64,000 nt of DNA from assembly GCA_964420575.1 (NCBI GenBank), contig CAYQTU010000002.1, positions 18,534 through 82,533 on the forward strand, given 5' to 3'. The notes below the pieces were generated by a model, which was not told the origin of the DNA, searched no databases, and saw only the letters and a list, made by a program, of their open reading frames with translations. Of this stretch, positions 2,470 to 22,900 are shown piece by piece. Made by a program: the position numbers and the translations under genes. Positions within the stretch are counted from its first letter, which is position 1. The number at the start of each line of letters is the position of its first letter. Origin of the DNA: an uncultured bacterium. GTDB lineage: Bacteria > Omnitrophota > Omnitrophia > Omnitrophales > Aquincolibacteriaceae.

Positions 2470-3455
2470 AATTTCTGGGCATTGTGCATTCATACGAAAA
2501 AGAAATTGATTTGTTAAAAAAGGCTATTGATAAGGAACAAGGCAATTGGTCCGCATATCAGCAGAAGGTTAATCAAATAATAAATTCAGTATTTGGTCTT
2601 TGTTGGGAATTTGAACGGCAGCATGCTGACAATGAAACGAAACTATACAAATTAAAACGATTGTTTAATAAGAATTTTATGCATTATTTCAGGCTCGGTC
2701 GATTGGGCAAGATGGTCATTGACAAGCCGTATGGCTATCATGGCGATTTTTATATTATTGATGAAATTTATAGAAATAAGGCCGCAACGTCGGGATTGGA
2801 AAGATGCCTAGATAATTATTTTCTTGAAACACCGGCATCTATCGCGACAAGAAACCGAAAGGAAGATTTTAAATCATACTTGAAAGAAATTATTGATAGC
2901 ACATCTTCAAACGAAATTCGCATAATGGATCTTGCGTCTGGTCCATGTCGCGATATCAAAGAATTGCTTGAAGAATATAAATCGGTTAGCGTTCCTATAA
3001 TCTTTGATTGTGTTGATCATGATCCTAATGCGATTGATTACGGCAAAAAAATATTAAGTGCTATCGACGCTAATGGAACCTCAATTAACTTTATTCAAAA
3101 AAATGCTATGAGGGTTGCTTTAACTAAATCAATCGAAAATTATTTTTGTTATAAATATGACGTAATTTTTTCTACGGGATTATTCGATTATCTCGATGAG
3201 CGTATTGCCACCCCTTTAATAAGAAATTTAAGAAAGATTCTAAAAAAAAATGGATTGCTCATAATTTCAAACTATCGGGACAAATGGGCTAATCCCTCTC
3301 GGCATTATATGGAATGGGGAGGCGGGTGGGAATTAATCTATCGAACAGAAGAACAATTTATTCAGTTATTTAAAGACGCTGGATTTAAGAATAATGAGTT
3401 ATCTTTAAAGTATGAACCTCAAAAAATAATGCAATATCGATTCGCAAGGAATTAA
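2466..3455 (+). CDS. class I SAM-dependent methyltransferase-like protein
   Basis: Motif I-like IRIMDLASGPCRDIKEL followed by acidic-loop FDCVDHD and motif IV-like DVIFSTGLFDYL; gene overlaps the histidine kinase gene start region (operonic). Confidence 0.5.
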   Translation: MKFLGIVHSYEKEIDLLKKAIDKEQGNWSAYQQKVNQIINSVFGLCWEFERQHADNETKLYKLKRLFNKNFMHYFRLGRLGKMVIDKPYGYHGDFYIIDEIYRNKAATSGLERCLDNYFLETPASIATRNRKEDFKSYLKEIIDSTSSNEIRIMDLASGPCRDIKELLEEYKSVSVPIIFDCVDHDPNAIDYGKKILSAIDANGTSINFIQKNAMRVALTKSIENYFCYKYDVIFSTGLFDYLDERIATPLIRNLRKILKKNGLLIISNYRDKWANPSRHYMEWGGGWELIYRTEEQFIQLFKDAGFKNNELSLKYEPQKIMQYRFARN

Positions 3456-3457
3456 AT

Positions 3458-5785
3458 TTGACCCCCGCGCAACATTATTTCACATCCGCGCTTATCACAG
3501 CTTTGGCCGCGTTCATTTTCGCGATATTTGTTTTTAAAAATTCACCAAATAGAAAATTGGCACATCATTTTATTTGGTATGCGCTCTGTATATCTCACTG
3601 GAGTTTTTTTGTTTTTGCTTGCACTTCTGTGTCAAACCATAAGCTTTCATACTTGTTGGCGCAAATATGTCATTTTATCGGCGTTTTTATACCCGTGGCT
3701 TTTTTACATTTTGTATATGTCCTAATGAATGATGAATCAAAAATTTTACGGCGAATTATAAAAATCTCATACGTAATTGTTGGATTGATATCATTGTGTA
3801 TTCTTATCAGGCCGCAACTTTTTATTACTGATGTTGTTCCAAAGCTAACGTTCTCATTTTTCCCAAATCCTGGACCACTATTCTATCTATGGACGGCTTT
3901 GTTTGTACTGCTTGTTCTGGTCGCTTTGATAGCCTTGTTTTTAGAAGCGAAAACAAAAAGCGGTGGCGAAAAGAAAAGAATATTATTTTTTTTAATCGCA
4001 AACTCACTTGGCTATCTAGGAGGAATCGGTTGTTTTTTTCCAGTTTATAACATTAGCGCGTTTCCGTTCCCCTACGGTATTTGGGGAGTGTTTTTTTTCG
4101 TCTGTGTTACTTTTTATGCCGTCCTCCGCTATCAGTTCATTGATGTTGAAATTATCGTCAAGAAGACATTGATTTTTGCTGGAGTGTTTTCTTTTATATT
4201 TGGGGTTCTTGCATTCGTACTCTTTTTTGCCATAGACATTTTGCAGCAACGCTTTGGAGGATCGCTGCGTTGGTGGTTGTTAGCAGTAACCACAGGTATT
4301 GTGGTATTTACAAGCAGAAAAGTAGAATTATTTCTTGTGGATGCGACTGACAAATATTTGTTTCAAAAAAAGTTTGATTATCGAAAAATTTTGAAGCATG
4401 CCAGTGATGGACTTTCGAGAGTCAATAGTCTGAAATACCAATTGGAGCTAGTAACTCACTTTTTGACATTGCGAACTCGAATAAGATCAGCAGCCATTTA
4501 TATCAGGGAAAATGGTGCGCCTGATTTTGTTCTTAAATCCTCTCGTTGCTTTGAAGGGGCGACATCATTTCCGACTCAACTATCCTTCGATTCCCAAATT
4601 ATTATGTATCTTAAAAAGGAAAGAACTAAACCATTTCTTGAACGATATGACATCGAGAATCAGAGCCGTAAGTATCAAAAAAACAGCTCCATGTTTCGCT
4701 ATGATTTGCTCGAGTTGAGAGATGAGATGCACAAGCTAAATGCCTATTTGGTTATTCCCAGTTTTTATCAAGATGAGTTGCAGGGTGTCCTCGTGCTTGG
4801 CGAGAAGCGTTCTGAAGAACCTTATAATGAGGAAGACATTAACCTCTTCCAGACGATCGCACAGGAGTCTGCGATTGCATTTGAGAATGCCCGCAAGCAC
4901 GATAAGTTAGTCGAACAGCATGAAGAAATGAAGCGCATTAACGAGGAACTCAGAAGAACACAGGAGGAAGTCATCCAGGCTAAGGAGGCCGCTGCGGTGG
5001 CTGCCATTTCAGCAGGCATTAGTCATGAGGTAAATAACGCTATTGTTGGTTTAACTGGCGCTATTGCAGAAATCAAGACCGTTTTCAATGGCGTTCGTAA
5101 AAGTATGATCGAATGGTTCCGATCCGGAGAAGCTGTGCCTGAGCGTCAGAAATACGACATCTTCATGAATTTAAAGTTAGCGACCGAGCATTTGACCTAC
5201 GCCAAAAACGCTAGTCACTATATCGAAGATGTCGTTCAAACTTTGAGTCAGATCGCTAAAGGCAAGAACGCGAAAATGACCAGGATTTCGCCCCGTATCT
5301 TTCTTAAAAATGCTGTCAGCGCGAGCATTCTTAGAACCTATGGGGACCGTGTGCGTAGCGAGGCTCTTGAAAATCCTCCCGAGCTTGATATGGAGAAGGA
5401 TATTCCTGCCATTAAAGGGCATACGGCTCTTCTCGATTCTGTATTTGTGAATCTCTTTAAAAATGCCATCTATGCCATGAAAGGTATTTCGCCCAAGAAA
5501 ATTAAAATTACCGCCATGGCCGATCCAGATGATAAAAGTATGGTTCGCATTGAATTTTCGGATAATGGCTGCGGAATCCCGCCGGAAGTGCTTCCAAAAA
5601 TATTCGATTATGGAGTCACTACCAAAGGAGAGCATGGTGAGGGGAAAGGCCTTTATAATGTTAAAATGATTATCGAGGAGCAGCACAAGGGAAAGATCGA
5701 TGTTCAAAGCGAAGTTGGGAAGGGTACGACATTTATTATTAGACTTCCTGTTTGGCAGGATGAGGAAGAGGACGAGGAAGAATGA
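3458..5785 (+). CDS. sensor histidine kinase, polytopic membrane N-terminus + GAF-like + HisKA + HATPase_c
   Basis: About 8 hydrophobic helices in aa 1-300; GAF-like region; H-box AISAGISHEVNNAIVGLTG; ATP-lid FSDNGCGIP...GEGKGLY...GKGTTFIIRLP; start codon TTG at 3458 per ORF track. Confidence 0.85.
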   Translation: MTPAQHYFTSALITALAAFIFAIFVFKNSPNRKLAHHFIWYALCISHWSFFVFACTSVSNHKLSYLLAQICHFIGVFIPVAFLHFVYVLMNDESKILRRIIKISYVIVGLISLCILIRPQLFITDVVPKLTFSFFPNPGPLFYLWTALFVLLVLVALIALFLEAKTKSGGEKKRILFFLIANSLGYLGGIGCFFPVYNISAFPFPYGIWGVFFFVCVTFYAVLRYQFIDVEIIVKKTLIFAGVFSFIFGVLAFVLFFAIDILQQRFGGSLRWWLLAVTTGIVVFTSRKVELFLVDATDKYLFQKKFDYRKILKHASDGLSRVNSLKYQLELVTHFLTLRTRIRSAAIYIRENGAPDFVLKSSRCFEGATSFPTQLSFDSQIIMYLKKERTKPFLERYDIENQSRKYQKNSSMFRYDLLELRDEMHKLNAYLVIPSFYQDELQGVLVLGEKRSEEPYNEEDINLFQTIAQESAIAFENARKHDKLVEQHEEMKRINEELRRTQEEVIQAKEAAAVAAISAGISHEVNNAIVGLTGAIAEIKTVFNGVRKSMIEWFRSGEAVPERQKYDIFMNLKLATEHLTYAKNASHYIEDVVQTLSQIAKGKNAKMTRISPRIFLKNAVSASILRTYGDRVRSEALENPPELDMEKDIPAIKGHTALLDSVFVNLFKNAIYAMKGISPKKIKITAMADPDDKSMVRIEFSDNGCGIPPEVLPKIFDYGVTTKGEHGEGKGLYNVKMIIEEQHKGKIDVQSEVGKGTTFIIRLPVWQDEEEDEEE

Positions 5786-6295: not shown

Positions 6296-7093
6296 ATGGG
6301 GAAAGAAAACGCGTATTCCGTACTGCTTTTGGATGATGAGATCATGGTTATTCGTCCTCTTGAAAGAGCGCTTAAAGCTAAAGGCTTTATCGTTTGGGGA
6401 ACCACGGATACGGAAGAAGCGGTTCATCTTGTTGAAGGGCACCGACCGAGCGTAGCGTGTATCGATCTTCATATGCCAAAAGTGAACGGTATTGAAGTGA
6501 TCAAAAAAATGCGGCAAATCATGCCCGACATTCGCATAGTTGTTGTTACGGGACATTTGGCAGAATTCCAAGAGGCGGTAGGAAGCCTTAATCTGCGAGT
6601 TGTTGAAAAAACTTCCCGCGTTGCACGAGAACTCGAAGCGGTCATTGCTGAGGAGCTGGAGCTTTCAAGGAAGGATCTTGATGGTCTCAAGACCCGCGAA
6701 AAGGTCAAGACCAAGCTCAGAGTTCTTTTTGTCGATGATGAAGCGGAGCAAGCCGATTTTAGTTGCGAAATAGTTACCTCTAGCGGCGCTGAGGCAGAAG
6801 CCGCGCACTCCCCGGAAGAAGCTATGGAGAAGATTCGGAATTTTAAACCAAACGTTCTGTGCACTGATCTTAAAATGCAGGAGATAGACGGCGACGAGCT
6901 GATTCGCAGGGCAAAAGCGTCCCCCGATAATTCCTGTATTAAATTGTATGTGGGGATGACCGGATTCTTTCACGAAAAAGAACGTTTATTGAATGCCGGT
7001 GCTGCCGAAGTGTTAACAAAGCCTGTCAATCTCACGGATTTCCTTGCCGCTCTCCAGAGGTGGGAAGAATTGATCGCCGGCCGTTCAAAATAA
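6296..7093 (+). CDS. tandem double receiver domain response regulator
   Basis: Two REC domains: VLLLDDEIMV...ACIDLHMPKVNG...VVVTGH and VLFVDDEAEQ...LCTDLKMQEIDGDEL...TKP. Confidence 0.85.
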   Translation: MGKENAYSVLLLDDEIMVIRPLERALKAKGFIVWGTTDTEEAVHLVEGHRPSVACIDLHMPKVNGIEVIKKMRQIMPDIRIVVVTGHLAEFQEAVGSLNLRVVEKTSRVARELEAVIAEELELSRKDLDGLKTREKVKTKLRVLFVDDEAEQADFSCEIVTSSGAEAEAAHSPEEAMEKIRNFKPNVLCTDLKMQEIDGDELIRRAKASPDNSCIKLYVGMTGFFHEKERLLNAGAAEVLTKPVNLTDFLAALQRWEELIAGRSK

Positions 7094-8479
7094 AGACGGA
7101 TTTGTAACGAGGAAAAAGTTAGTAGGTTCCGCAGGCGAGTAATTCCTGAACGAATAGCCAAGCGACATATCGCAGTAGATGGTATCTTCCCGGTCGATAT
7201 CCGGGTAATTGTGCCGCTCTCCAAGCTGGGCCCCAATTTTTCCATTCATTCCTTTGACAAGTAAATACCCGGGATTTTTTCCTTCCCATATCTTTTCTTT
7301 CAGCGGCGTGCTTCCTACGGTTGCTCCCTGTGGCATTGAATGAGTGCCCATGTTGGCTTGCCCCATAAAGAAACGCTGTTTTTCCAATCCGATTTTAAGC
7401 CAGGGATAAAAAGTCATTCCGAACCTGGCGCTATAATCATAAATCCCGCGCTCCGATCCTTTTGTGATCTGTGCATTCAGGCCGGAATTGAATGGTTCAC
7501 CGCGGAAGAACTGATCCATCGAGACCCCTACGCATTCGGCCAGACGTTCGAGTTTATCGATGGGGAAATTAAGGACCATCCCTTTCATGACTCTATCCAA
7601 ATCTCTCGGCGGAAGACCCGCTAGGAGCGCCACCTCACTCAATGGGATGGGCTTCTCGGGATCCGGCGATAACCAGATGCGAACCTGTTCAATGAGTGCG
7701 GGAATATCGAGATTCTCGCTTGTGAATCGTTTTGAACGGGGCATTTTTTTATCGTAGGCCAATACCGCTGTTGGGCTAAAACTTATAAGGATTTCCGCTT
7801 CGCGGTCTTTAGAAAGATTGACGATCGAATGTTCAACGCCTCCATTAAAAAGCACCGGCTGTCCGGCCATAATTTCTTCCGTTTCATTTTCCTCCGATAA
7901 AATTTTGATTCGTCCATTCATGTTCGCAAGATGAATGGTTATTGGTTTCGGAAGTTTTAAGCCAGTTATCGTTTTCCCCGGGGCGATCAGGAATGATGCC
8001 GCGAAAAAGTCCACCAGACTTTCAACCGGTGGGGTATGGACAATCACCCGGAAATCCGGCGATTCGGTATTTGGGTATTTGAAAAGCGTTTGTAAGTGTA
8101 AAAAAACACCATGCTTTGCATAGTCTTTTACTTCTTTTTCCGGAGGCATTGCCGCTTTCGTGATAAAAAAGTTGCCATAAAATTCTTCCCGCGCCATCTG
8201 AAAAAAATCATCAAGATTTGTATCTACCGCATGGGCCAGTTGCTTCACTTTTTGGGGGGTTGTAGTGAGCTGATGTGATGCACTCATTCGGATAATCGAC
8301 CCTTCCGAGATCCCAGTTTTCGTGGCGATTTGGATGTATTTGATTCGCTTTTGCCGGCTGATCGCCCAAAGCGCTCTTCCCACGGAAAATGTCTTTTGCC
8401 GCGGGAGCCGCGGGTTTTTTCTGAAGAATTCCTTTTGATAGTCCTTCCAGATCCTCGAGTACATACCTTTACTATACAT
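7085..8479 (-). CDS. XRE-family HTH / cupin-domain transcriptional regulator
   Basis: N-terminal HTH (IKYIQIATKTGISEGSIIRMSASHQ), central cupin-like beta region (GRIKILSEENETEEIMAGQPVLFNGGVEHSIVNL), second HTH-like segment (PLSEVALLAGLPPRDLDRVM); only long minus-strand ORF in this region. Confidence 0.7.
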   Translation of the reverse strand: MYSKGMYSRIWKDYQKEFFRKNPRLPRQKTFSVGRALWAISRQKRIKYIQIATKTGISEGSIIRMSASHQLTTTPQKVKQLAHAVDTNLDDFFQMAREEFYGNFFITKAAMPPEKEVKDYAKHGVFLHLQTLFKYPNTESPDFRVIVHTPPVESLVDFFAASFLIAPGKTITGLKLPKPITIHLANMNGRIKILSEENETEEIMAGQPVLFNGGVEHSIVNLSKDREAEILISFSPTAVLAYDKKMPRSKRFTSENLDIPALIEQVRIWLSPDPEKPIPLSEVALLAGLPPRDLDRVMKGMVLNFPIDKLERLAECVGVSMDQFFRGEPFNSGLNAQITKGSERGIYDYSARFGMTFYPWLKIGLEKQRFFMGQANMGTHSMPQGATVGSTPLKEKIWEGKNPGYLLVKGMNGKIGAQLGERHNYPDIDREDTIYCDMSLGYSFRNYSPAEPTNFFLVTNPSLF

Positions 8480-9077: not shown

Positions 9078-9256
9078 AACTTTAAAGCCGGCTTACTGCC
9101 GGCAGAAAAGGAGAATACAAGATGAACGGTAAATCGAAAAATAAACGGAAAGGATCCTTGATGTGGCACGTGGCCCTTCGTTACCGTTGGCTGCGCCGGA
9201 ACTGGAGTTATGTGCAGAGGATCATGTCAACGGAGCGCGAGATCGGAGGCGAGCTT

Positions 9257-9707
9257 CATGCGTGTTAATCAAGCGGACTTAACTTCTGATAAGCCCGTAT
9301 GGAGGAAAGATTTTTTAACCGTCGAATGGAACGGCCGGACTTTTCCCATCATGAGTTTTTACATGATCCACAAGGTCACCAAGCAGTTTTTGAATATCCT
9401 TGAATCGGATCAAGAAAGCAATGAAGACGAGAAAGTCCGGAGCTTCACTCCTCTCATGAATTGGTATCAGAATTTAAGTCAGTCTGTTCAGAATCTTTTT
9501 GCATCCGAGCTTTGGTGCGAATCCTTTAATGCGTGGCTTGCGATGCAGCGCTGGTGGTGGGAGGACGATGAGGTGAGTCGGTATGAAGCGATCCTGAAGT
9601 ACCACAAATTACGTCTTATTCTCAATCTTGATGAGCTTTTTGCGGGGCGCGCTGTAGCGGAAGAAGTGAAACAAGAAGGAGTTCGGAGTTTAGCAGTAAG
9701 TCGATAA
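9257..9707 (+). CDS. hypothetical protein
   Basis: ATG at 9257 preceded by GGAGG (9244-9248); in-frame with ORF-track 9210 start; Trp-rich C-terminal half. Confidence 0.5.
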
Positions 9708-9811
9708 ATCCCTGAATAGGGATCCGCCAGGATACTGGCGGAGGCAAACCCGCCGAAAGGCGGGGACGCAAAACCACGGATCTAAATCTTCCTTAAGGGG
9801 GATAAGATGGC

Positions 9812-9853
9812 CGGGTTACCGATGAGAAAAACGGTAACCCGGTTTTTTATTTG
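9812..9853 (+). terminator. rho-independent terminator
   Basis: CCGGGTTACCG-loop-CGGTAACCCGG 11-bp stem followed by TTTTTTATTT. Confidence 0.7.
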
Positions 9854-9896
9854 AACGGGAAATCGGAAAAATGAATGGGAGAGGACCCTTTTTAAA

Positions 9897-10112
9897 ATGT
9901 CTCAAGCGGAAGATTTGAAAAAGATCGTTGAAGCGCTTGTTCTCGAGAAGAACAAGACCGCTGCTGAAGTCCGGGATGCCGCTCGGGAGGGCCAAGAAGC
10001 GGTTGAGCGGATGCAGCGTTCCGTTTATCGCTTATACGATCTCGTCAGCAAACTATCGGAAAAACTCCTTCGCGTTGCCGGAGAATTCCAGAAAGAAGGG
10101 AATGCCCAATGA
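9897..10112 (+). CDS. hypothetical small coiled-coil protein
   Basis: 71-aa ORF overlapping the next gene by ATGA; heptad-like sequence. Confidence 0.45.
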   Translation: MSQAEDLKKIVEALVLEKNKTAAEVRDAAREGQEAVERMQRSVYRLYDLVSKLSEKLLRVAGEFQKEGNAQ

Positions 10113-10507
10113 TTCACGACCTAAAAGATCTTCGCGCCAAAAATAGCGCTGCCTATGACCTTATGGTGGAATTTTTGACAAGCGCCCGTGGTTCCAACCG
10201 GTTCTATGCGATCCGGAAATTTATGGAGCATCTTCTCCAGGAATGTTCCGAGAAGGAGATGGAAGCGGTGGATTTGAATGAAGTATTTCAGTTCGCTTTT
10301 TTCGGGTCCCATCTTTTGGTGATCCCTAAGGATCCTTTTGGGGATAACGATTTGCTGGTTTTGAAGAATTTTCGGGGAACTCATGATTTTGAATCCGAGC
10401 GGATTGTATTTTCGGAAGATTCTTTTAAAGTCGAGCCTTCGTTTTCGCTCAAGGACTATATCAAACGCTGTCTTTTAAGAGGAATTAACCGTGGATTTCT
10501 TTGTTAG
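10109..10507 (+). CDS. hypothetical protein
   Basis: 132-aa ORF translationally coupled to 9897..10112. Confidence 0.5.
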   Translation: MIHDLKDLRAKNSAAYDLMVEFLTSARGSNRFYAIRKFMEHLLQECSEKEMEAVDLNEVFQFAFFGSHLLVIPKDPFGDNDLLVLKNFRGTHDFESERIVFSEDSFKVEPSFSLKDYIKRCLLRGINRGFLC

Positions 10508-10843
10508 GTTTGGGACGGATAAGAAACGGGGAAAGTGGCGAAAAAGTCTTCCGGCCGAAGGCCCTGGTAGTTGCGCTCTGGCTGAGTTCGCGCTGCCTAG
10601 CTGCTTTCCCTCTACTTTCAAGCCTAACTGATCAAATTTGAGTTGTAAAGTTGCTGGGAACAAAAAATCGCATAAATTTTCTATAGATTTTAAAGGGAGT
10701 ATAAGGGGTCCGGTGCCTTATTTGCCGTAGAGTGCTTGGAAAAATAAAAATAAGTTAGTAAAAAATTTGAAAAATTCAAAGGTGTCGGGTATACTTCGAA
10801 ACGCTTTCGGAAGTTTTCGAGATAAAAGATTTCCCGAAAGCTA

Positions 10844-10908
10844 ACTCAGCCAAATAGACTCAGCCAGCAGTTCAAATAAACTCAGCCAACAAAATTAGAC
10901 TCAGCCAG
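10844..10908 (+). repeat. four direct repeats of ACTCAGCCA(A/G) in leader of giant gene
   Basis: Copies at 10844, 10858, 10880, 10899 (14-22 bp spacing), each followed by A-rich sequence; a fifth copy in inverse orientation (CTGGCTGAGT) at 10578-10587. Confidence 0.7.
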
Positions 10909-10988
10909 AGCGGAAGCGGTCCGCATTATTAAGGAGCGTTTAGCTTCTTAAGGGCTAATTAAAACTTTCGTTCTTCACAGGATTTCTT

Positions 10989-13900
10989 GTGAAGACTATT
11001 GGCTGGCTGAGATTCCGATTTGCGTTCAGGCTTATTTCTCTCGTTTTAATCCTAAGCCTCATTTCTTCGGATATTCTCTGGGCAAATCCCGTCTCCATGG
11101 TTCCATCTGCGGGGCAATCCGTCTATTCGCCGGGAACGGGTCTTGAGGGTTTTGCCCGTTTAAACGAATCCACTCGCTCCGATCAAAAAGATAAATCCCC
11201 GATTATCTACCACATTCAAGACGCGCATGCGGTCTTTGAAGCTCAACAAAACCTGGCGAAGATTGTTGAGGCGCTTATTCAGAAGGAAGGCATTGATCTT
11301 GTTTTGGTGGAAGGCGGTGCCGGGAATGTCAGCCTGACTTCTTTAAGGAGTCTAGCTTGGAAAAAAGTCCGTAAGCGCGTTGGCGAATCTTTTCTAAGGC
11401 AAGGAAAGATTACTGGCGAAGAATTCCTCGAACTTTCAAGCGATTATCCTTTTGAGCTTTATGGGATCGAAGACCCCGCGCTTTACCGCCAGAACCTGGA
11501 TGTTTTCTTAAGCGGCATCAGCAAAAAAGAGAAACTCTCAAAAGAGCTTGGGCGTCTTGATAGCGCTTTTTCGTCCCTGGAGTCATCCATTTATCCTTCC
11601 CGGTTTCGGGATCTCGAGGAACTGCGTTTGGCATGGCGGTTCGGGAAAGGAGATTTTCAGGTTTATCTCAATACCCTTCGCAAACTCATCAATGAATCTA
11701 AAGTCCCCGCGCATGATCTCCTGGAATGGCGTAAGCTCGGCAACTCCGAAACTGTGCGCTCCATTGACGCAGAGAAATTCCTGAAAGAGATAAACGTCCT
11801 TGAATCCAGACTCAGGGAGTCATTGCTTAATACTCAAGCGAAAAGGTTGTGGCGAGCACAGGAACACTTGAGGCTTCTCGGCCGTCTTTTTTCTTTCGAA
11901 CTCACTTCGGATGAGTACGCGCTTCTTAACGGTCAGCAGCATTTTGATTTAAAAAAGACTGGAGCCGATATCGAGCGTTTAATCCAGGATTCAGTGCATC
12001 TCCGAAAATCCTTCGCGTTTCTTCGCTCCGAATTCCCGGAATTTCTCAAGTTCTACGATCTTGCCCGGAAACGCGATAAAGCATTTATCAAAAATATTAA
12101 CTCTATCCTTCGGGAAAAACGGGAACGAAAAGTCATTCTTATCACCGGCGGTTTCCATTCGAAACATCTAGGAGCTTTGCTTAAAGAAGAGGGCATCTCC
12201 CGTATTTTAATCTCTCCCGAAATCACGGGAGCCAGTAAAAACATTGATTCTGATTACGCAAAGATTTTACGGGCGAAATCGAAATCCACGCTTCGCGCGC
12301 CGGCAACTTTGGGAAGCCCCTTCTATCCTGAACTCAAAATAACATTGGGGCGTGAGCAGGCAAAGGAACTCGGGGGGCATATCAAGCAGCTCATCAGTTT
12401 ACTGAATGTCGATCATCTGATGGCACCGGCTGCCTCGAAATCCGTTCTCCTTCGTTCCGAGCTTCGCATGGAATTATTCAATCATCTTGGTACATTTTTC
12501 GCTTTATCCAATAATGGGACGGCAGTCCATTGGATAGTCATAGGGAGCGCGGGTATCCTGGGTATCGGGATACTCGCGTTTCTCCTATCCAAGTGGAAGA
12601 AAAAACATAAAGCTACCCATCAAAATCCAGTTTTATTAGCTGATTCCGAGTATTCAAGCGACACGGAGCTTTCTTCTGATGAAAACAACGCCGATGAAGC
12701 CTTTGCAAACTTCGAAGCGACACTTGGTCACGCGGCTACTCCCGCGCAGGCATTTGCTTTTGAAAGCGGCCGGTTCTTCGGTTCAAGTTTTCCCGTCGCT
12801 TCTCAGGACCAGCATCTTCCGCCTCCGCCTCAGGAACTTCCTCTGCCGGTTCCGTTAAACGCGATCCCGGCGGATCTTGATCAAAAGGGAAAAACCGTGT
12901 TTGTGCTTCGTGAAGTTTTGCAGGCGATGGAAACGATGGATTCGACCATGCGCGGCCACCAGAAAGAATCCGCGGAACGCGCGATTCGCCGTGTCGTTTC
13001 GGAGGGGGACGGCACCCTCGATCACAGACGGTTCAGACAGTATCTCGAGGAAGACATTCATCAGTTTTTCGGGACTATCTTTCGGGAGATGCAGAAGCTT
13101 TCAACTACGCACAGAGAAACCGGAAATTATCAAGTCTCGGAGGAGATTGAAAAAGCGTTTCCCCGGTTCCCGCGCTATGTGAAATCCATTCTTAGCGAAA
13201 ACCCTGGTCTTAGCGAGGATGTTGAAGTCAGAGGGCTCATGAACCGGATCTCCGCGAAGCTTGGCGCAAGACCGCCCGTCGCAGAAGACCTCGGCGATTA
13301 CGTGGAACGTTCCTTTTCTCGGATCATGGAAGAGCGCGCTCAAACTCGGATGCCGGTTCTTCCCGTAGTCGAAACTCCCAAGCCCGCTCCTAAGAAGACC
13401 GTGGACCTTGGAAGAATTCAAGGACAGTTGCGGGATGTTCAAAGAATGCGGGAACGTTTTGAGGCGGATCAAATCAGTCTTCATGTGGAACTTACGCAAC
13501 TCGAGACGGAGTACCGGGAGCTTCAGGAAAGCATGGAGGATGCGAGACAAAAGAATGACACCGTGATACAGGAGGCGTTAGGCCCCTCCATTGACGCTTA
13601 TGAGAGCCGCATTCAACTTCTCCGGCATAACGATGGGGAGATAAAGGACCGTCTTCGCCAGATCAAAGGCGAGGAAGCGAAATTATCCGAGGAGCTGGAT
13701 GAGGCGACCGGGAGATCGGAACTGCGTGAGTTTCTTTCTTTCCCGATTGTATTTTCCTCGCTCGGGACCGGACTTCTCATGCTAACGGCTCTTTATCTGA
13801 CTAAGATCAATAGAGCCATACACCGGATCAGGGAGCTTACGGTAAAGAGCGGCAGGAGCTGGCCCTTTACATGGAAACAAGTCTTTGATGAAACCGTTCA

Positions 13901-16900
13901 TCTCAAAAAGGAGGAGAAACTCAGCATTTTTGACGGAACCTCGGAGCCTCCCGCTCAAGGGTTTGCCGGGTTTGGGGTATTTCTCGGCTGGGTCATTGGC
14001 GGTTGGGCTCTTTATCAGGCATATCACGGATGGGGTTGGAACACGGCTAAGATTCTACGCGGCGAGGGCGATAGCGCGTTTACTTTCGGGGGCTTGCTCT
14101 GGTGCCTTGAAATCTTTGCCGCGCCTATCGTTGGCGCGATCGTAGCTCCATTTTTAGCGTTCTTGGGAACTATCGCGATCAATCGCGGGAGAATGATTGC
14201 CCGCATTCTCAAATTCCCATTCGACTACGAAAAAGTTTTAGAACTTCATCTATCTGACTTTCATGCATATCACCAGCCTTTCTTGAAAAAAGCAGCCCGG
14301 TTTCTTTCCCACATGAAAAGCTCTACTCTTGAAACGATCCTTCGTGGCTGGTTCGATCGCGGGGAGGATGAAAAACTCAAAGCCGTTTTGGAGAAAAACG
14401 TTTGGTCCGGCGAAAATTACGCGCTCATTGCCCGGTTCCGGGACGAATTCGGTCTTAAGGAAGCGAAGAAAGCGCTTTTTACTGCCGCTGGCGAGGAGTT
14501 TGGGGGAAGACTTCTCCAAATCATTGATACGTTTAAAGCGGGGCTTATCGCGAAGAAGGTGAGCGGTGCTGGAATATTAAAGGACGTGATCCTCGAGGTC
14601 TTGAAGACCGAGAAAGAAAAACACATGGCGACGTACTGGATGACGCAGCTTATGTCCGATCCCGCGACTCCGTGGAACGCGGGTTTCGATAAAGTAAAAG
14701 CTTATTACGCGGTCCGGAAACGCGTGGATGTCTTGAAAACCGACGCCGCAAAAAAGTTCGGGCTCGATAAGGAGGATCTGGCTCAGGTTGATGCTCACAT
14801 CGGGAAATGGCGGGAGCGAATTCTCGCTCCGGAAAATAAGGTAACGGAACCTTCATGGGTGTGGTCGCTTATCTCGGAACTTCTCGGGAAAATCATCGCC
14901 CGTTCATCTACAAAAGTTTGGTTCATGCACATCCTCGAAAAATCCCATAGCTTGAACGCACCGTTTTTTGCACCGGCCAGGCAGCGGGAGCTGCTTTCGA
15001 GGCTTGACTGGCTCATTAATTACGAGATCGCGAAAAGCGATGTTTGGGCATCTGCGAGCGAATCTGAAAAGTCCGTTCTTTTAAGCGAGATGACGAGTCT
15101 TGAAGCTTTCCTTAAAGAAAACGGGGTGGATTACTCAATAGCTCTTCCGGATACTTTCACGAAAATCAAGGCTCTGAGTGCGCCAGAGCGGATCATGGTT
15201 CTTCGTGCCTTTAGAGGCCTGAATCCATCGGTCTACAAAAAAGATCCTCAGGCGGCGGGCCGTGCTTTTCAGCTTTTAGCGGACAAAGAAATACTGCGGG
15301 GGAGACTTGCCGCGAATAACGGATCGGCGGGGAGCATTCGCGAGCTTGAAGCGAGACTTGCCGTGCAAACTCCTGAGGACATTCAAACCCTTAAGAGTTG
15401 TTACGGCGTTCTCGCTGAAAAAGCGGACGCGAAAGCGCAGGGTGTTTTACTCGCGCTTGCCGCTCGCGCTCCTCCCGCGGTACTTCCTGTTTTTCTTAAG
15501 TCCTCGGATCATCTTGTGAGTTATTACGCGGCCCATCCCAAGGGCCGGGATTACGACAACCTTCCACTGTTGGCCGATGAATACCGGAAACGTTACGGCA
15601 GTCTTTTTTCCCTGAACGGGATTCTTCTTAATATCCTTACCGATCCCTCAAAACCTCAAGCTGTAAGAATTGAGGAAGCCGGGAAAACCATCGCGGGACA
15701 AGTCTTGGTCCGGATGGGATTTCCCGAAAACACGATCGGGGTCTGGGACAGCGTGAGCCCCGAGGAAATCATCCATGCGGTCGGGTACGAGGTCTTAAGG
15801 TATTCGGAAGAAAAGAAATCCGACGACGAGGAGAAACGAAGTTATTTCAGTCCCGAAGAAATCCGAGGCGAGGGCGAGAGATTCCTTCCGGCGCGGACCC
15901 GAAACCCGGTCGTGCGGAAAGCTCTCGAGAAAATGGGCCGGTTCGGTCTTTACAGCCACTGGGAAAGCGCAAGGCCCGCCTATTACCTTCAGTTTCTTGA
16001 AGACACGAAGGGTCTTGATCCCGAGTTCTTTAAACCCGGTGAAAAGGTTCGGGCCTCTTACGACGGCGAGTTCGTTTCTCCGAGGCGCGCAGGTTCTCTT
16101 GCTCCCATCAAAGATCCCATTCAGACCATGAAAGGCCTGATTCGAAATCTCCGGGACCGTTATCCGAATATTTACGACAATTTCATTGGTCCGAAGCGCG
16201 AGATCCTTGCCGGGAAACCTCTCGAGGATTTCATCACCGACGAGAAGAGTTTAATGTCCGTTGCCGGTCAGTTCCGCAAGAAAGTCGCGGATTGGCCTCT
16301 CTCCGAGGATGAACGCGTTGAAATGATGATACTTATTTATCAGGTGGCCTTTTCAAGCTCTCTTCAGCCTGTGCTAGGGAAATCCTCCGAGACGGAAGAA
16401 ACGAGGTACTGGCAGGACACTTTAAAAGCGTTTCAATCGGCAAGCGGTCTTAAGAAACAATCGGAGCTTTACCGAAACGTCACGGCCCGGATCAAGAAAC
16501 GAATCGATGAACTCATTGAGGAGGCCGGAGCGGGCCGCGAGGGAGTCGTTCAGTTTGTTTTGACGCGTGGTAGCGTCTCCGATTTCTTCAGGGGCGAGAT
16601 ATCGGAAGACTGCACTTCAGAGTTATGGAACATGCATTTTACGGACACGGTCGGTCTTCCGACCGATCCCGCGTTTTTATCGTTCCGTCTTGTCGAGAAC
16701 GGACGATGGATCGGAAACGCATACGCAATCGTGTTAAAAGACTCTTCCGGGAAATTCATTTTTTATCTGGATAACATTCCGGTCATGCTCAGGCACCCCG
16801 CGACAACCGTTCAGGTTAAATCCGATAAACTGATCCAGAATTTCTTCAAACAGTTGAAACCCGTTCTCGAGAACGCGGGCTTCGATTATTTCGTGATCGC

Positions 16901-19900
16901 GAACGATCCGTCCTCCCGCGCCAATCTCAGGACGTCCATAAAAGCGCTCGGCGGATCGGCAGAAACGAAGACCGTAACAAAACCCGGTGGATTCGGCGGG
17001 CAAAGCGAGTTCGGCGTATCAAGCGAATACATTCAAGGTCTCGGGACGTTATCTTCCTCGATTTCCGCGGCCGGCACCTGGATCACTCTCGATAACCGCT
17101 CGGCGCAGGCGCAGAAAAGCAAAGCGGAGCTTACCGCCCTTGAAAAACAGATTCAGGCGATGGAAGAAGACCGGAAACGCCTCGCGGCGCTCAAGGCCGA
17201 AAAAACGGGTCGCGCGAATCATCTTAAGACCGTTCTTCAAACGATCTCGCAGGGCTCGAAACGCGCGACAGCGCAGGCGCTTAATGAAGCGGCGCAAAAA
17301 GAAGAACTCGAAGCCGAGAGACTTTCCATCGAAACAAGAACGCTTGAAGAACAGGTGAAAGCGGTCCGGGGCCGTCTTACCGGGCTAAGGAATGAAGTAG
17401 CGCAAAGAAGCGAATTGAGAATGCCGGCTCTTTTAGCGCAATCGTTATTTCCTGATCTGTCTCCTGGGTTATTGCTCTTCGGACTCTGCGCCCTTCTTTT
17501 CGGCGGTCTCATAGTGATCCTCATCATTGACTGGTATAGCGAGCAAGTGAAGCGGGATGAGGAATATACCCGCTCCCTTGAAAGACATTCCGATGATTTT
17601 AGATACACTCTAAGACCGATTAATGAAACTCCCGGATGGATGAAGCATCCTCTCGTCGTCGAAGTTGGTGAGCTTTTCAAAACGGTTCTCGCGAATGTCT
17701 CTGCCGAGATCCGGGAACTCGTTCCACACCGCATTTTTTTACCGATCATGGGTTGGAGTATGGACCTTTCAAAAGAGGTCGTTAATGTCCTTTCCACGGC
17801 CCGGATCGTGCTTCTTGCCCTTAAGGAAAAAGGCTCGCTTATCCCGTTTCTAAAAGAGCAGCCTTACTATCAGAAATTCAAGGAGGAGGCCTCCGCGTTA
17901 GGTCTTGATCCCGAGTTTGATAAGCCGGGTCTTGTCTCGGAATTCGAGCTTTCCCGGCATAACGGCACAAAGATTTCTTTTGCGCTCGAAGTATCGGAAC
18001 GCACAGCGGACGATTTATTGCGCGGCGATATCAGCCGCGATTGCACCGGGCTTGGCGCGCACGCCGCGTTTTACGAAACAATCCCGCAATTTTTGCTCGA
18101 TCCCGGGTTCATTGATCTGAAACTCAGGATGCATGGAAGATGGGTGGGAAACGTTTACGTGATCGCGATGAAACGGGAAGGGAAACCCGTTCTTGTCATT
18201 GACGCCGTACAGCTGCATCCCAGTTTTGTGCTGTGGCCGATTCGTCCGGCGACGATTGCCGATGAAGCGGTGAAGCAGGTGACGGAATGGGCGAAAACGA
18301 AGAACTTCCAAGCTGTGTATATGAGCCGATTCATTTCAAACTTCTTTTATCTATACGACCATTTCGATCCGAAATACCCGCCCCAAAAAACCGAGATCGA
18401 GAAACTCGGAGGATTCAAGCACCTGAAAGCGCTCGGGCTTTGGGACGCGGACACTCGCCGCAATCAATACATCGAAACGTTTTCTCCGCACTGGAACGAA
18501 CCGCTAAGAGTGGACGCAAATAGCGCTCACCAGACACTTCTCCTTCGTCCTATTTGGAGCGCCGAAGCTCCAGCCCGTTCCGAAATGCGGACGGATAAGG
18601 TGTGGGATCTTGACGGATTCCATTTCGAAGTTCCGGAAAGCGATTTGAAGGGACTCCGCGGTGTGGAGGCGGAAAAGGAATCCAAGAATCAGAACCTGCT
18701 TTTGCGCGCTCTTGCGAGCAAGGAACTCGGTCTTTCGGCGGCGCTCAAGGAAGCGGTTCTTGATCCCGCCACGAAAATCCGGGTAAGAATCCATGACGAG
18801 ACAAAAACGGAACGCATTTATAAATTCATCATCGTTCGTCCCGACGGCCGCCGGAATTTCATTCTGGAAATCAATCCAAGAGGCGGGAAGTTCCATCCCT
18901 ATACCGAAGAGCTGAATCTTGTGGATACTGCGCTTATGACGGCCACGGATTCAACTGGGGAGGTGGATCTTCGGGATATTTTCACCAAGTTCGGGGAGCC
19001 GCCCGATCCTAAACTTCACGTGATCCCGTCCTTCGGAACCCTTTATGCACAGGAAATCCACAAGCACGGGTATGTGGACCAGGGCATGAAGATATTCGAT
19101 CTTACGATTAAGGACCATCCCACTCCGTCTATCCGGATCGCGACGAAAGCAAAGAACGCTTCCGAATTCTCGGGCGCAAAAGTGATTTATGATTTTAATT
19201 GGCAGAAGACGCCGTATGTTTTGGCTGTTTATTCTCCGGGAGCGGAGGTTTCGTTATCCGAACCTAGTACACCAATTCCTTCTGAAACCGTTGTTGTAGA
19301 AGCGCCGGTGAAAGCGGAAGCTCCAGAAGATTTAAGTCCGGTGAGCGTGCCGGAGCCTCCAGAGCCCGAAACTCCGGAGCCTGCGGCCGCAGTTGCTCAA
19401 AGCGCGGGAACAGCGGGAGTGTTGGGAGCGGGTGCCGCTTTCATCAAAGCGATCCTTGCCAAGAAACGGGAATCGTTATTTAAGGCCTCCATCCAGAAGA
19501 TTGAAAGAATCGGAAGCGATATTCTCGGGATTGCCCGGAAAGCCAAGGAAGCGGTAGAAACTGCTGTGGAACCCTCAGACCTTGACCGGCTGGAAGCCGA
19601 GCTTGCGTCTTCAGCAAGCGCGATTGACGAAGGCCTCGCCAAGCTCGAAGCGGAAGTCGCCAAATACAAAGACGGTTCGAAGGAAAGAACGGAACTTGAC
19701 GCTCTGAAACAAAAAATCAGCGGAGAAATCGAAGCGCTTAAGGAAGCGGATATTGCTCGCGAGGCTGCGGTTCAAGCGACAGATGATCACGCTAAAGCGG
19801 AGGAAATCTCCCAGGCCTTGGCCGAGGAATCCAGGAAATTAACCGCTCTGAAATCTCAGACTGATAAGGCCCGTGAAGAACTCGAGCGTTTAGAGCAAAA

Positions 19901-22900
19901 GACGCGGGATTTCACTACCCAGGAAAAGAAACGCAATGACCTGCTTAAAACCGTGGAGGAATTAAGCGCGCGGATCCGGGGAGAGGAAGAAACCCTTGCC
20001 GCTCTTAGCGAAAAAACCACGCAGGCCGAACGTGATCTGGAAGTCAAGAGATCCCAAGGGGAGACTCTCGCCCGGGAACTCGCCAGCCAGGAGTCCCGGC
20101 TTAAAGCGCTCCAAGCGGACCAGGAACAAGCGAGAACCGAGCTGACTGAAATCCTTTCGAAACTCAAATCCGCGAAACGCAGAGCTTCGGATTTAGCGAG
20201 AAAAACGAAGCAACTCGAAGAAATTTCGCGAAAGACCGAAGAAAAAGACCGGAAACTTTCCGCGAAAAACGATGAGCTTTCAAAAGCCGATCAAGCTCTG
20301 ACCGAAAAACAAAGATCTCTTCAGGCCCTCGATGAGACGTTAGCGGCTCGTGGCAGGGAAATCGCGGCCTTGGAAGAAAAAGCGGCAGGTCTTCGAACCG
20401 AAACCGAGGCGCTCGAACGGAGAAAAGAAACGCTTTCGAAATCGACTGAGGAGCTTGGCACGATGCAGTCCGAGGTATCCGCTGCCGAAGCCGAGCTTTC
20501 AGGGATCCGAAAACAGTACGAGGACGCAAAAGCCGAGTATGAGCGTGTTCTCGCGCTTAGCCGGGAGGAGCGCGGTAACCTAGCAACCATTCAGGCCGAA
20601 CTTTCAAAAGCACAGGAAGCGGCGCAGGCGATGGAAACGAAATTATCCGATCTGAAGGAGCAGGAGCGGAAAAGAGAAGCGCTACTTCGTCAAATCGCCG
20701 AGGCTGAAAGAGAGCTTGAAGTAAAGGCCGCTTCCTTAAAAGAGATAAACGCGGAACTTTTAAAACTCGATTCGAAGAAAACGGAGCAAATTCAAGACTC
20801 GGAAAAAACGGACTCTGAAATCGCGGCAAAAGCCGCGGAGCTTACCCAAGTCAAGGCGGAGACGGCAAAGCTTCAGAGCGACCTCGAAACTTTAAGAGGA
20901 AACATCGCATCGCTTCTGGGTGACATCGAAGCTAAAAAGCGGGAGGCCGCCGCTTTAGAAGAGGAAAAAGTCCGGCTGCTTGGGGAAGCGAAATCCATTG
21001 AAGAGAAAAACCGGGAGATTGAGGAAGCCCGGAGAAAATTAGAGGCCGAGCAAGCCGAAAGAACCAAGGCCGAGCAGGCGCTTGCTGAGGAACAAAGAAA
21101 AGCAAGTGATACGGCTCAGGGTCTTAAGACAGTCGGGGAACGTTTGAAACAGACTGTTCGTGATATCGCGGACCGCGAGACAAAAATCGCGGGTCTTACG
21201 TCTGAGGTTGAGACTGAGAAAGCGAAGACAAGACAGGCCGAGGCCGGGAAATCCCAAGCCGAGGCCGAGCGCGAGCAGCTTGAAGCGGATCTCACGCATG
21301 CACAGCAGGAGAAAAATGTTTTAGAGGAAGCTTTACGACAGGCCCAGAAAACTTCAAAAGCGACCGGAACTACCGATTCCGTGCTGGAAGGGCGGGAGAG
21401 CCTCGAAGCCCTTCTTTCGGAACTTCCCGAAAGTTTATGGCAGCTTCTCGGGCGTCATTTTCCGGGGCAGCATCAAACTTCCTTTCAACTCACGGTAAGT
21501 TCTGTCGCGAATGAACTCGCTAACGCGTGGAGCCGGAGCCCATTTTTCAGACGCATCATAAAAAATCTCGTGCTTTACCGTTCTCTTTATGTCTGGCTTC
21601 AAAAACAACCGTTCTATCGAGAGTTTAAGAAGGAAGCGGAAAAACTCGGGGTAAAATCCGATTTCGATAAACCGGGGGAATGGATCCGTTTTAATATTCC
21701 GGGCGATTCCGAAGGCTATTCTCTCGAACTTTCCAAAAGGGACGCGGAATATCTTCTTCGCGGATTCATGTCCGGGGACTGCACGAACTGCGGTCCCGGT
21801 TATGTGACAGGCTCATTCCTGACCGCTACCGCAAGCCACATCGTCGATCCCGGTTTCTTTAACTTCAAGATCTTGAGGAACGGCGAGTGGGTCGGGAATG
21901 TCTACGTGATGGCGATCCGCGAGAAAAATAAACCAGTGCTCGTAATCGATGCGATGCAGATTCCGTGGCAGAGCGCTTCTCCTCTTTTCATTCCTTTTGA
22001 TTTATCGCAGAGCAAGTTCCCGATCGTAAGTGAGAAGGACGCGATCACGTTGGCGGACGCGGTGATTCGTGCGCTGTCCGAATACTCCTCAAAAGCCGGG
22101 TTCCAGGAGCTTTGGCTCTCGAGCTTCGTTTCCAATTTCAGCGCGCTCAAACATCATTTCTATGGCGCTAACCAAGATGAATTTGATAAGCGCGTAACCG
22201 GGGAAGCGAAGATCGGCGGCTGGAGTGCGTTAAAAGCGCTCGGGTACGAAGGTCATCCTTATGTGGAATCTATTGGGAACCCCGAAGCGAAGAAAGTCTG
22301 GGAAGCGGAGGAAGTGCCGCCTCCAACTCAAGTTGAACCGCCAAAAGTCACTCCATCCACTCCAGAACAGCCCGTTAAAGGAACCCAGAATATTAAAGGT
22401 CTTGTTCAGCAGATAAGAGAAAGCGTCATGTTCTCGTACGGGAACATTGTCCCTCGCGGCATGGAATTCGTCGTGAAAGCACCGGGAGCCGGAGTACGGT
22501 GGATCGCTTTTGATGAAACGGCCAATGAATGGAGACTTTACGAGAAAGCGAATGGCAGAACCGAGAGTTATCCCTTATTTGAGATAGGAAGCGGTGTTCG
22601 CCAGCAATCCGGAACTCTCAATCTTTCAGTCATTGCTGTGGAACGCGGCGGAAAGAGGATTCCTGTCATCAGATTCTTGATGCTTCCGCCCATTAAACCC
22701 GGAATTCTTGAAACGCACGTTGAAGAAGGCGGAGCTATTTTCGAGGAATCGGGTGAGATGAAAGTAATGCCTTTTACGAAGAAAGGCTTCATCGTGGACG
22801 ATTCCCGTGGCGCGTTCTTTGTCCATCCGGGCGGAGACCAAGGTCTTGATTCGAAGGAAAATATCTCATTGCCACTTTCGAATCATTATGACGTGAGCCG

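Follow-up and report, generated by a model that had tools for sequence, protein, structure and literature searches.

Short repeated words in the leader of a giant gene suggest, from sequence, an undescribed RNA switch acting on a giant surface protein of the Omnitrophota. The gene in question is an open reading frame (ORF) of 5005 amino acids (aa), found within 64,000 nucleotides (nt) of DNA from an uncultured bacterium of this phylum, that whole stretch being referred to here as the window. Ahead of the GTG start of this gene is an array of four direct copies of a word, ACTCAGCCA, described here as R boxes, while farther upstream an inverted copy lies in the loop of a putative structured RNA, described here as U. 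The interpretation that we favor, with a confidence leaning modestly past even, is that R boxes are RNA pairing sites which have both the U loop and the early coding region as partners, with U relieving a self-inhibition of the giant gene's own mRNA.

That the word is repeated had been pointed out in an original prediction, and the five copies are real: four exact ones on the forward strand (10844, 10858, 10880, and 10899) and an exact reverse complement at 10579-10587, i.e., 5 in 64 kb versus 0.22 expected, a count not attained in any of 100 dinucleotide shuffles. With one mismatch permitted, the additional matches are scattered ones along with one at 11004-11012, just within the giant ORF. 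In a k-mer screen of the 64 kb, the array indeed is the sole intergenic site at which an 8-mer is present at least three times within 200 nt. The direct copies, as read from the sequence, are these:

10844 to 10853, forward strand: R1 (ACTCAGCCAA).
10858 to 10867, forward strand: R2 (ACTCAGCCAG), which has as its best match in the early coding region 10 base pairs (bp), CTCAGCCAGC with GCTGGCTGAG.
10880 to 10889, forward strand: R3 (ACTCAGCCAA).
10899 to 10915, forward strand: R4 and the sequence extending it on the 3' side (ACTCAGCCAGAGCGGAA), to which the U loop has its longest match; the extension overlaps the 5' strand of a stem described below as the F stem.

Related DNA was sought by means of a metagenome scan with the giant protein, two profile searches, and contig look-ups. 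The first two protein searches yielded mostly paralogues of approximately 510 aa having other N-termini and no arrays, and exact-protein look-ups of window proteins yielded a single 1.5-kb Logan contig, identical to window positions 9213-10724, which was useless for comparison. The informative loci came instead from a narrow N-terminal profile of the giant protein, the N-terminal 600 aa of which are without a Pfam domain and have homologues only in Omnitrophota. The resulting set consists of the window plus 11 related Omnitrophota loci (L121, L124, L125, and L161-L168).

The array is kept in all 11 of these other loci, at the same distance from the GTG, conservation at orthologous loci being what the original prediction had staked itself upon. 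That is, in 12 of 12 loci there are 3-4 copies of one word of 7-10 nt, spaced 10-29 nt apart, with the last copy found 76-91 nt upstream of the start. The spacers between copies are unconserved, yet all copies of a locus share one core. The word itself is not the same from locus to locus, differing even between close relatives (ACTCAGCC versus ACTTAGCC), such that six words are seen across the 12 loci:

ACTCAGCC: the window, L161, L162, and L167.
ACTTAGCC: L163, L164, and L166.
ACCCAGC: L121.
GCCCAGC: L124.
ACCAGCCAG: L125 and L168.
ACTCCGACC: L165.

In L168 (230-460) the array consists of three copies of AACCAGCCAG plus a degenerate fourth copy, ATCAGCCAAG, with promoter and F stem both present. 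Two simpler accounts of the repeats were considered and rejected. One was a functionless remnant of tandem duplication, for the spacers differ, the cores are identical, and the array is kept in 12 loci. The other was complementarity to 16S rRNA, i.e., a translational enhancer, for the word is not constant across loci.

The upstream inverted copy is located within what appears to be an RNA of approximately 80 nt. As derived from an 8-locus alignment and its covariation, the elements of U in the window are the following:

10530 to 10609, forward strand: U as a whole.
10530 to 10539 with 10600 to 10609, forward strand: the P1 helix, which closes U.
10545 to 10551 with 10557 to 10563, forward strand: hairpin a, with a conserved loop, CGGCC.
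10566 to 10575 with 10589 to 10597, forward strand: hairpin b, the 13-nt loop of which (10576-10588) bears the anti-repeat.
10571 to 10587, forward strand: the anti-repeat of the U loop (TTGCGCTCTGGCTGAGT), complementary at 16 of 17 positions to R4 and its flank (10899-10915).

Across the 8 loci, 89.9% of cells in the alignment are paired, with 12 of 25 pairs changed on both sides; none of 500 shuffles matches what is observed, and with the partner strand shifted by 1-3 columns only 43-51% of cells still pair. G.U pairs are numerous in U, would be A.C on the opposite strand, and thereby indicate that U probably is read from the forward strand, the same as the giant gene. The loop of hairpin b varies from 12 to 21 nt in length. 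In 8 of the 8 loci with a long enough contig, U is found 220-360 nt upstream of its own array, just past the stop of the preceding ORF. Searched with a covariance model of U, each locus has a single copy, at 72-104 bits, other than a second, weaker U-like copy in L166, and there is no further match either in the window or in unrelated loci. With Rfam 15, a cmscan of 9500-12000 at E up to 10 returned only a cyclic di-GMP (c-di-GMP) riboswitch, leaving both U and the repeat leader unmatched, and Rfam returned nothing but a riboswitch in L123 among L121-L125 and L132, and nothing in L161-L165.

What ties U to the array is its loop. The anti-repeat is matched by R1 through R4 over 10, 10, 10, and 14 contiguous Watson-Crick nt, respectively, with 0 of 1020 background windows reaching 14, and the corresponding duplex energies are -17.0, -22.5, -17.2, and -30.9 kcal/mol. 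In 8 of 8 loci with U on the contig, the U loop complements that locus's own word, over 9-14 contiguous Watson-Crick nt, and among the background windows, 167-1020 for each locus, none attains this. Of the repeats, the last one has the longest contiguous match to U in 6 of 8 loci, and its predicted duplex with U is the most stable in 7 of 8. For the window, L161, L162, and L163, the match of U with R4 (or its equivalent) furthermore continues into the F stem, on its 5' strand, but in L125, L165, and L121 it hardly does so. These contiguous-helix statistics, as compared with local background, replaced a cross-locus matrix of duplex energies over long windows, which did not discriminate between words because most of the words share CAGCC.

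Several further observations concern U and its surroundings. The loop of hairpin a (window 10552-10556) is a conserved, self-complementary (C/U)GGCC in all U copies and, as speculation, could mediate loop-loop dimerization of U or partner binding. In L166 the second U-like element (867-942; 41 bits), truncated where the contig stops, follows the small ORFs of the first module. The loop of its hairpin b (UUCCGGCUUUCGUA) is different and without a match to the ACTTAGCC array of that locus, and the element may be the key of a further module. A block ATACC(T/C)GATCA directly follows U. Another block, TGCTATAAATCGCA (in the window TCGCATAAAT, at about 10664-10680), is found in the spacer between U and promoter and resembles an extended -10 without a -35; it has counterparts in these relatives:

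L121, approximately 2648 to 2662.
L161, approximately 9697 to 9712.
L163, approximately 2664 to 2678.
L165, approximately 2444 to 2458.

An RfaH ops-like element in U (GGTAG) was considered too but rejected, as it is unconserved, with GGTGG in other loci.

The region between U and the giant gene had been described in the original prediction as part of a single untranslated leader of 480 nt. This does not hold, for 10508-10988 instead is divided among U (a distinct RNA element), a spacer, a promoter, and a 5' untranslated region (UTR) of approximately 187 nt. Along with the 17-nt complementarity of U loop to R4, that promoter and a nearly perfect sixth copy, inverted and within the early coding region, are the features which go beyond what had previously been noticed. 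A hairpin of GCTTTCGG with CCGAAAGC, on the other hand, had been noticed correctly. Features of this portion of the window are these:

10767 to 10795, forward strand: a sigma-70-type promoter, TTGAAA-17-TATACT, between the upstream inverted copy and the direct copies.
10803 to 10841, forward strand: the hairpin just mentioned, in extended form (GCUUUCGG to CCGAAAGC), at the 5' terminus of the predicted mRNA, as obtained with a repeat finder and by folding.
10908 to 10973, forward strand: the F stem, GAGCGGAAG (10908-10916) with CUUUCGUUC (10965-10973), which encloses variable hairpins, as obtained with RNAalifold from 9 loci.
10972 to 10995, forward strand: the start hairpin, UCUUCAC with GUGAAGA, with the Shine-Dalgarno sequence AGGA (10980-10983) in its loop and GUG (10989-10991) in its stem.
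10989 to 26006, forward strand: the giant ORF, i.e., the gene of this leader.
11002 to 11011, forward strand: the anti-repeat of the early coding region, GCTGGCTGAG, at +14 to +23 (codons 5-8, Gly-Trp-Leu-Arg), from sequence and folds.

All 12 loci have a promoter of the form TTGAC(A/G)-17-TAnnnT, placed alike between the U position and the repeats. As that conserved promoter lies where it does, the true 5' UTR is predicted to be approximately 187 nt rather than 480 nt long, with transcription predicted to start near 10802. The repeats would then be found at about +42 to +107 of the predicted transcript, that is, inside of the RNA. At this transcript's 5' end, the other loci possess a hairpin of different sequence at the same position, as seen in per-locus minimum-energy folds. 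Farther along, the GAGCGGAAG and CUUUCGUUC segment pair of the F stem is conserved in all loci, with 90% of cells paired (9 loci) and with changes that are mostly from G-C to G.U. All 12 genes behind the array start with GTG, and every locus has a Shine-Dalgarno-like sequence. In some loci the 5' arm of the start hairpin varies along with the GUG arm, as CAC/GUG, CGCG/CGUG, and CACG/CGUG.

The second partner of the R boxes is the giant gene itself. In the window, GCTGGCTGAG is the perfect complement of R2 plus flank, and in 11 of 12 loci a complement to the R word, weaker than that of U, is found within the first 33 nt of the coding region (codons 3-8). For 9 of 9 loci tested, these complements consist of 7-10 Watson-Crick nt (with background at 0-7%), or of 7-14 nt once G.U pairs are allowed. 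Gly-Trp codons, GG(C/T)TGG, are common to 6 of the 9 loci tested (the window, L121, and L161-L164) as well as to L166 and L167. In L165, L124, and L125, by contrast, the array precedes a different small ORF, and there the complement fits that locus's own word using unrelated residues: GGTCGGAG for CTCCGACC in L165, GCTGGGTT for AGCCCAGC in L124 (with one G.U), and CTGGCT in L125. Positions +8 to +23 are within or next to the region, a window of five codons, where pairing blocks initiation.

Folding brings these partners together as well. RNAalifold, as applied to 9 loci and unprompted, stacks a helix of last repeat with early coding region upon the F stem, enclosing both the Shine-Dalgarno sequence and the GUG. 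When each locus is folded by itself to minimum energy, one R box or another is paired with the early coding region, the array otherwise being mostly unpaired. When R4 alone is blocked in these predictions, another box takes over, but when all of the boxes are blocked, then the early coding region becomes accessible in most loci, with the probability that +7 to +25 is unpaired rising from 0.13 to 0.61 in L124, from 0.18 to 0.50 in L165, and from 0.08 to 0.36 in L121. Duplex energies are -13 to -31 kcal/mol for U with R boxes (-18 to -31 for U with R4) versus -8 to -28 kcal/mol for coding region with R boxes, U generally being stronger.

The argument for RNA pairing is one of tracking: a word that is identical within a locus yet diverged between loci is followed, in its changes, by the loop of U as well as by the gene's first codons, with G.U pairs tolerated, as pairing between bases would predict. 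As to how such a module might work, any one R box would pair with codons 5-8 of its own mRNA (11002-11011). That pairing, along with the F stem, would close a three-way junction around the Shine-Dalgarno sequence and the GUG, hindering 30S binding and giving rise to a default OFF state. The R boxes, R4 most of all, would be bound more tightly by the U loop than by the coding region, and U would then displace the inhibitory pairing, turning translation ON. In several loci, the continuation of the match between U and R4 into the F stem would help to open the junction. The presence of multiple boxes could create a threshold, with one free box sufficing for repression, or, alternatively, cleavage of the long duplex of U with R4 might remove R1 through R3 in a single step. 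In this genome, the c-di-GMP riboswitch upstream of U would tie the switch to c-di-GMP. The sign of the regulation, whether U acts in trans or in read-through transcripts only, the role of copy number, and the link to the riboswitch are all things which we infer.

A number of points weigh against this interpretation. The 12 loci are all of one lineage and represent six independent words, not 12 independent observations, and the complementarity of the coding region is evidence that is in part non-independent because of the shared Gly-Trp codons. L168 has no complement to its repeat in the first 33 nt, the sole such locus, its gene being N-terminally truncated and starting inside of the N-terminal domain. 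Covariation is significant neither for the F stem, its sequence being too conserved, nor for the start hairpin, for which support is weak (79% of cells paired, 9 loci). Blocking R boxes is predicted to alter the accessibility of -14 to +6 hardly at all, and in the thermodynamic model a block of R4 only frees neither the coding region nor the ribosome-binding site. Each U has one anti-repeat versus 3-4 boxes, so activation would require either several U molecules or cleavage. In L121, the duplex of coding region with R4 is predicted to be stronger than that of U with R4. No canonical terminator was found after U, and we infer its expression as an RNA, the position of both its ends, the promoter or processing that gives rise to it, and where the mRNA begins. 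The c-di-GMP riboswitch, considered as a general part of the module, was rejected in that role: It is absent from L161-L165 and, because it is missing there, is viewed as an add-on rather than as a module part.

The same pairing might have some other outcome, and it is this possibility, while improbable, that holds up best among the alternatives. Here the array would be a single-stranded platform, Rho-loading (rut-like) or RNase-sensitive, which U masks, resulting in anti-termination or stabilization over the 15-kb gene, or else the array would be a decoy which titrates U, or U would be a repressor which locks the leader. The array is rich in A and C and poor in G (A 33-46%, C 22-33%, and G 12-22% over 51-76 nt, as measured in 11 loci), with C-containing words every 10-29 nt. 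An A/C-rich, G-poor composition resembles that of rut sites, and C-rich, G-poor, unstructured RNA over 60-80 nt, as is associated with Rho utilization, is what the array presents. Consistent with the platform as well, U pairs with every box, over 8-14 nt each, and the ribosome-binding site stays closed in folding models when only R4 is blocked. A rut site, however, needs neither identical words of 8-10 nt nor a complement to the first codons, the latter being conserved in 11 of 12 loci. Nor does the window offer U any other target, the 64 kb having no further exact copies of ACTCAGCCA. A platform and relief by U of self-inhibition are not mutually exclusive and may coexist.

Next in standing, and somewhat more improbable, is that U acts in cis only, i.e., in transcripts which read through from the upstream operon across U into the array, with a long-range helix of U loop and R4 enclosing approximately 310 nt and with long versus short isoforms being translated differently. 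No terminator-like site was found between U and the array, and a minimum-energy fold of 10560-11030 does form the helix of U with R4 (z = -2.66). A constant upstream placement of U, at 220-360 nt from its array, also would fit, as would the second U of L166, with its different loop, as if preceding another module. The strong promoter separating U from the array in 12 of 12 loci nevertheless implies that most transcripts should lack U. The sequence and length of the interval from U to promoter are poorly conserved, and one anti-repeat in cis cannot fill four boxes. A Logan contig (L001, SRR15237810), identical to window positions 9213-10724, is the sole other assembly of the exact sequence, and its end at 10724 is in the A/T-rich spacer between U and promoter, away from the inverted repeats, which probably is a break due to coverage or low complexity.

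Quite unlikely is that the 17-nt inverted repeats, 10571-10587 and 10899-10915, flank an invertible promoter segment of 311 bp, such that the giant surface protein would be phase variable. In each of the 8 loci with U the promoter does lie between inverted repeats of 10-17 nt, recombination would also maintain the exact identity of the upstream copy with R4, and there is a likeness to fimS, where short inverted repeats flank a promoter segment of approximately 300 bp upstream of a surface-protein gene. The segment's size resembles that of fimS-type switches in general. Unlike with fimS, however, the upstream arm is located in an RNA hairpin loop, with stems and P1 covarying across that arm, and inversion would destroy this structure. 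The orientation is the same in 8 of 8 assembled loci, Pfam reveals no recombinase domain among the neighboring genes (though one could be found elsewhere in the genome), and R1 through R3, the copy in the coding region, and the G.U-tolerant matches of the coding region are left unexplained.

Least probable of all, and least compatible with the pattern of word changes, is that the repeats are DNA sites for a dedicated transcription factor, for even though direct repeats at approximately 1-2 helical turns are typical of response-regulator sites, and genes for an XRE-cupin protein and two response regulators are syntenic with the leader in several loci, these sites are downstream of a conserved promoter and inside of the predicted transcript, their spacing is variable (10-29 nt), matches that are G.U-compatible make sense only for RNA, and operators would usually have a motif which is conserved across loci and degenerate within them, whereas here there are six words, varying between close relatives and with cores identical within a locus, along with complementary changes in RNA loop and coding region. 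An array of binding sites for a dedicated regulator, such as the XRE-cupin protein, was just what the original prediction had proposed. What survives of that proposal is a conserved regulatory feature of the gene family's leader, and what does not is the identification of the repeats as sites for a DNA-binding protein, as changes in the word are mirrored in the U loop and the coding region.

Relief of self-inhibition by U, as favored here, has relatives among known systems. In the case of DsrA and rpoS, passages of one report describe a small RNA (sRNA) that opens an inhibitory leader structure, with the duplex creating an RNase III site (PMC2831331). As with DsrA, RprA, or ArcZ acting on rpoS, or RNAIII on hla, a segment of the leader here pairs, computationally and except in L168, with its own initiation region, and a separate RNA which is complementary to that segment could displace it, being stronger than the coding region except in L121. 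Unlike in systems of the DsrA-rpoS type, the inhibitory segment is present in 3-4 identical copies, U immediately precedes the one target that can be seen for it, the pairing word is locus-specific (six words), U has no similarity in sequence or structure to any Rfam sRNA, and activation is a prediction.

A second set of relatives consists of CopA/CopT, hok/sok (with its fbi, tac, and ucb elements), and RNA I/II of pAD1 par. As in these, a hairpin loop presents the sequence to be recognized, with every U loop starting with a YUNR-like CUGG, UUGG, or UUAG as in loop-presented antisense systems; several mutually exclusive complementary elements are present within one mRNA; and the pairing sequences diverge quickly, as in an address code. 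The differences are that U is on the same strand as its target and approximately 300 nt upstream rather than antisense to it, that the target is the operon of a chromosomal giant surface protein rather than a replication or toxin gene, and that there are four tandem target sites. The array also is like CsrB/RsmZ and sRNA sponges in that several short, identical motifs are found in unstructured, A-rich RNA. It differs from these in that the motifs are in an mRNA leader and, from CsrB/RsmZ, in that the partners pair by bases and change along with the motifs, rather than there being a protein with a fixed GGA-type motif. A self-inhibited leader that is opened by a complementary RNA, and loop-presented antisense recognition, that is, are precedented. 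Not in Rfam are the U RNA, the tandem identical boxes, the fixed neighborhood of key and lock, and the locus-specific words.

Searches farther afield did not extend the family. A scan of a genome collection for ACTCAGCCA-N(4-14)-ACTCAGCCA gave 119 unrelated matches, e.g., coding tandem repeats in Actinomycetes, the pattern being too unspecific; none of the 80 matches listed of these 119 is from Omnitrophota, and the U covariance model matches none of the 119. Two scans of viral contigs, using conserved U and leader patterns, gave chance matches only.

The neighborhood of the leader is itself conserved, the order in several loci being a histidine kinase, response regulators, a divergent XRE-cupin gene, small ORFs, and then the leader, with synteny between L161 and the window extending to the downstream glycoamylase gene. 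The window's 464-aa ORF at 7085-8479 (reverse strand), earlier called XRE-cupin, has no Pfam match at E up to 0.01, while genes of 438-449 aa at the same syntenic position in L161, L163, and L165 have HTH_3 matches along with weak Cupin_2 matches. Upstream of U in the window are found the following:

9734 to 9824, forward strand: a c-di-GMP-I-GGC riboswitch aptamer (Rfam RF03167, 68.5 bits versus a gathering threshold of 59, E 1.6e-15).
9811 to 9852, forward strand: an intrinsic terminator, CCGGGUUACCG to CGGUAACCCGG plus U6, overlapping the 3' end of the aptamer, as read from the sequence.

This riboswitch precedes two ORFs, 9897-10112 and 10109-10507, neither with a Pfam match, which are followed by U, and no terminator-like site was found between the riboswitch and U. 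From that order of genes, U could be made in response to c-di-GMP in this genome. In L123 (2030-2107) a c-di-GMP-I riboswitch likewise is found upstream of a homologous gene cluster, one without a repeat array.

The giant gene's body also varies. In L161 (10001-10981), which is fully syntenic, the same leader precedes a gene of just 326 aa, with the glycoamylase gene immediately after it, so that, from comparison with the window, the giant body appears to have been gained or lost between close relatives. Homologues are broken at or just before a conserved VVYHIQDAH in L121 (approximately 3200-3560), L162 (approximately 1990-2070), and L163 (3001-3835), and in proteins P0113-P0115 and P0125. 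The L121 homologue has about 340 extra nt near that motif, L163 has two small genes, one of them helix-turn-helix-like, between a first ORF of 99 aa and the remainder, and P0114 and P0115 share an alternative continuation (RIFKNPNSCSV...). These interruptions could reflect insertion, errors of assembly, or a leader ORF that has fused with, or split from, the main gene. Within the giant ORF, AGGCCGAG is present four times in approximately 230 nt (21043-21270), probably as coding repeats.

A broader proposal, held only tentatively and with the balance against it, is that these modules represent, in Omnitrophota of this lineage, orthogonal, address-coded RNA locks. Each would consist of a U loop serving as a key of 10-17 nt, a promoter, and 3-4 identical keyholes which otherwise clamp the first codons of an operon for a secreted or giant protein, with keys diverging quickly and modules chained together or wired to signals. 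Were that true, then several modules would coexist within a genome without crosstalk, for which the second U of L166 may be cited, and a U at the 3' end of one operon would unlock the next. As for signals, the c-di-GMP riboswitch here would act on U, and U on translation of the giant protein. Multiple keyholes would provide a sharp threshold before commitment to a protein of 5005 aa.

Giant genes are a hallmark of the Omnitrophota, with a proposed role in attaching to other cells or preying upon them. Term searches of the full texts of two papers on these genes turned up no mention of riboswitch, UTR, promoter, c-di-GMP, or sRNA, and in one such paper that same kind of search found 'upstream' used only with regard to secretion-system loci. 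The leader module described here would be a first regulatory lead for giant genes, supplying a concrete, testable mechanism in an uncultivated phylum, and one that can be tested without growing the organism. Multiple copies of a self-inhibitory box, combined with a dedicated neighboring RNA and locus-specific words, bear as well on thresholds and orthogonality in bacterial RNA control, and the riboswitch of this genome suggests a cascade that may run from second messenger to RNA to RNA.

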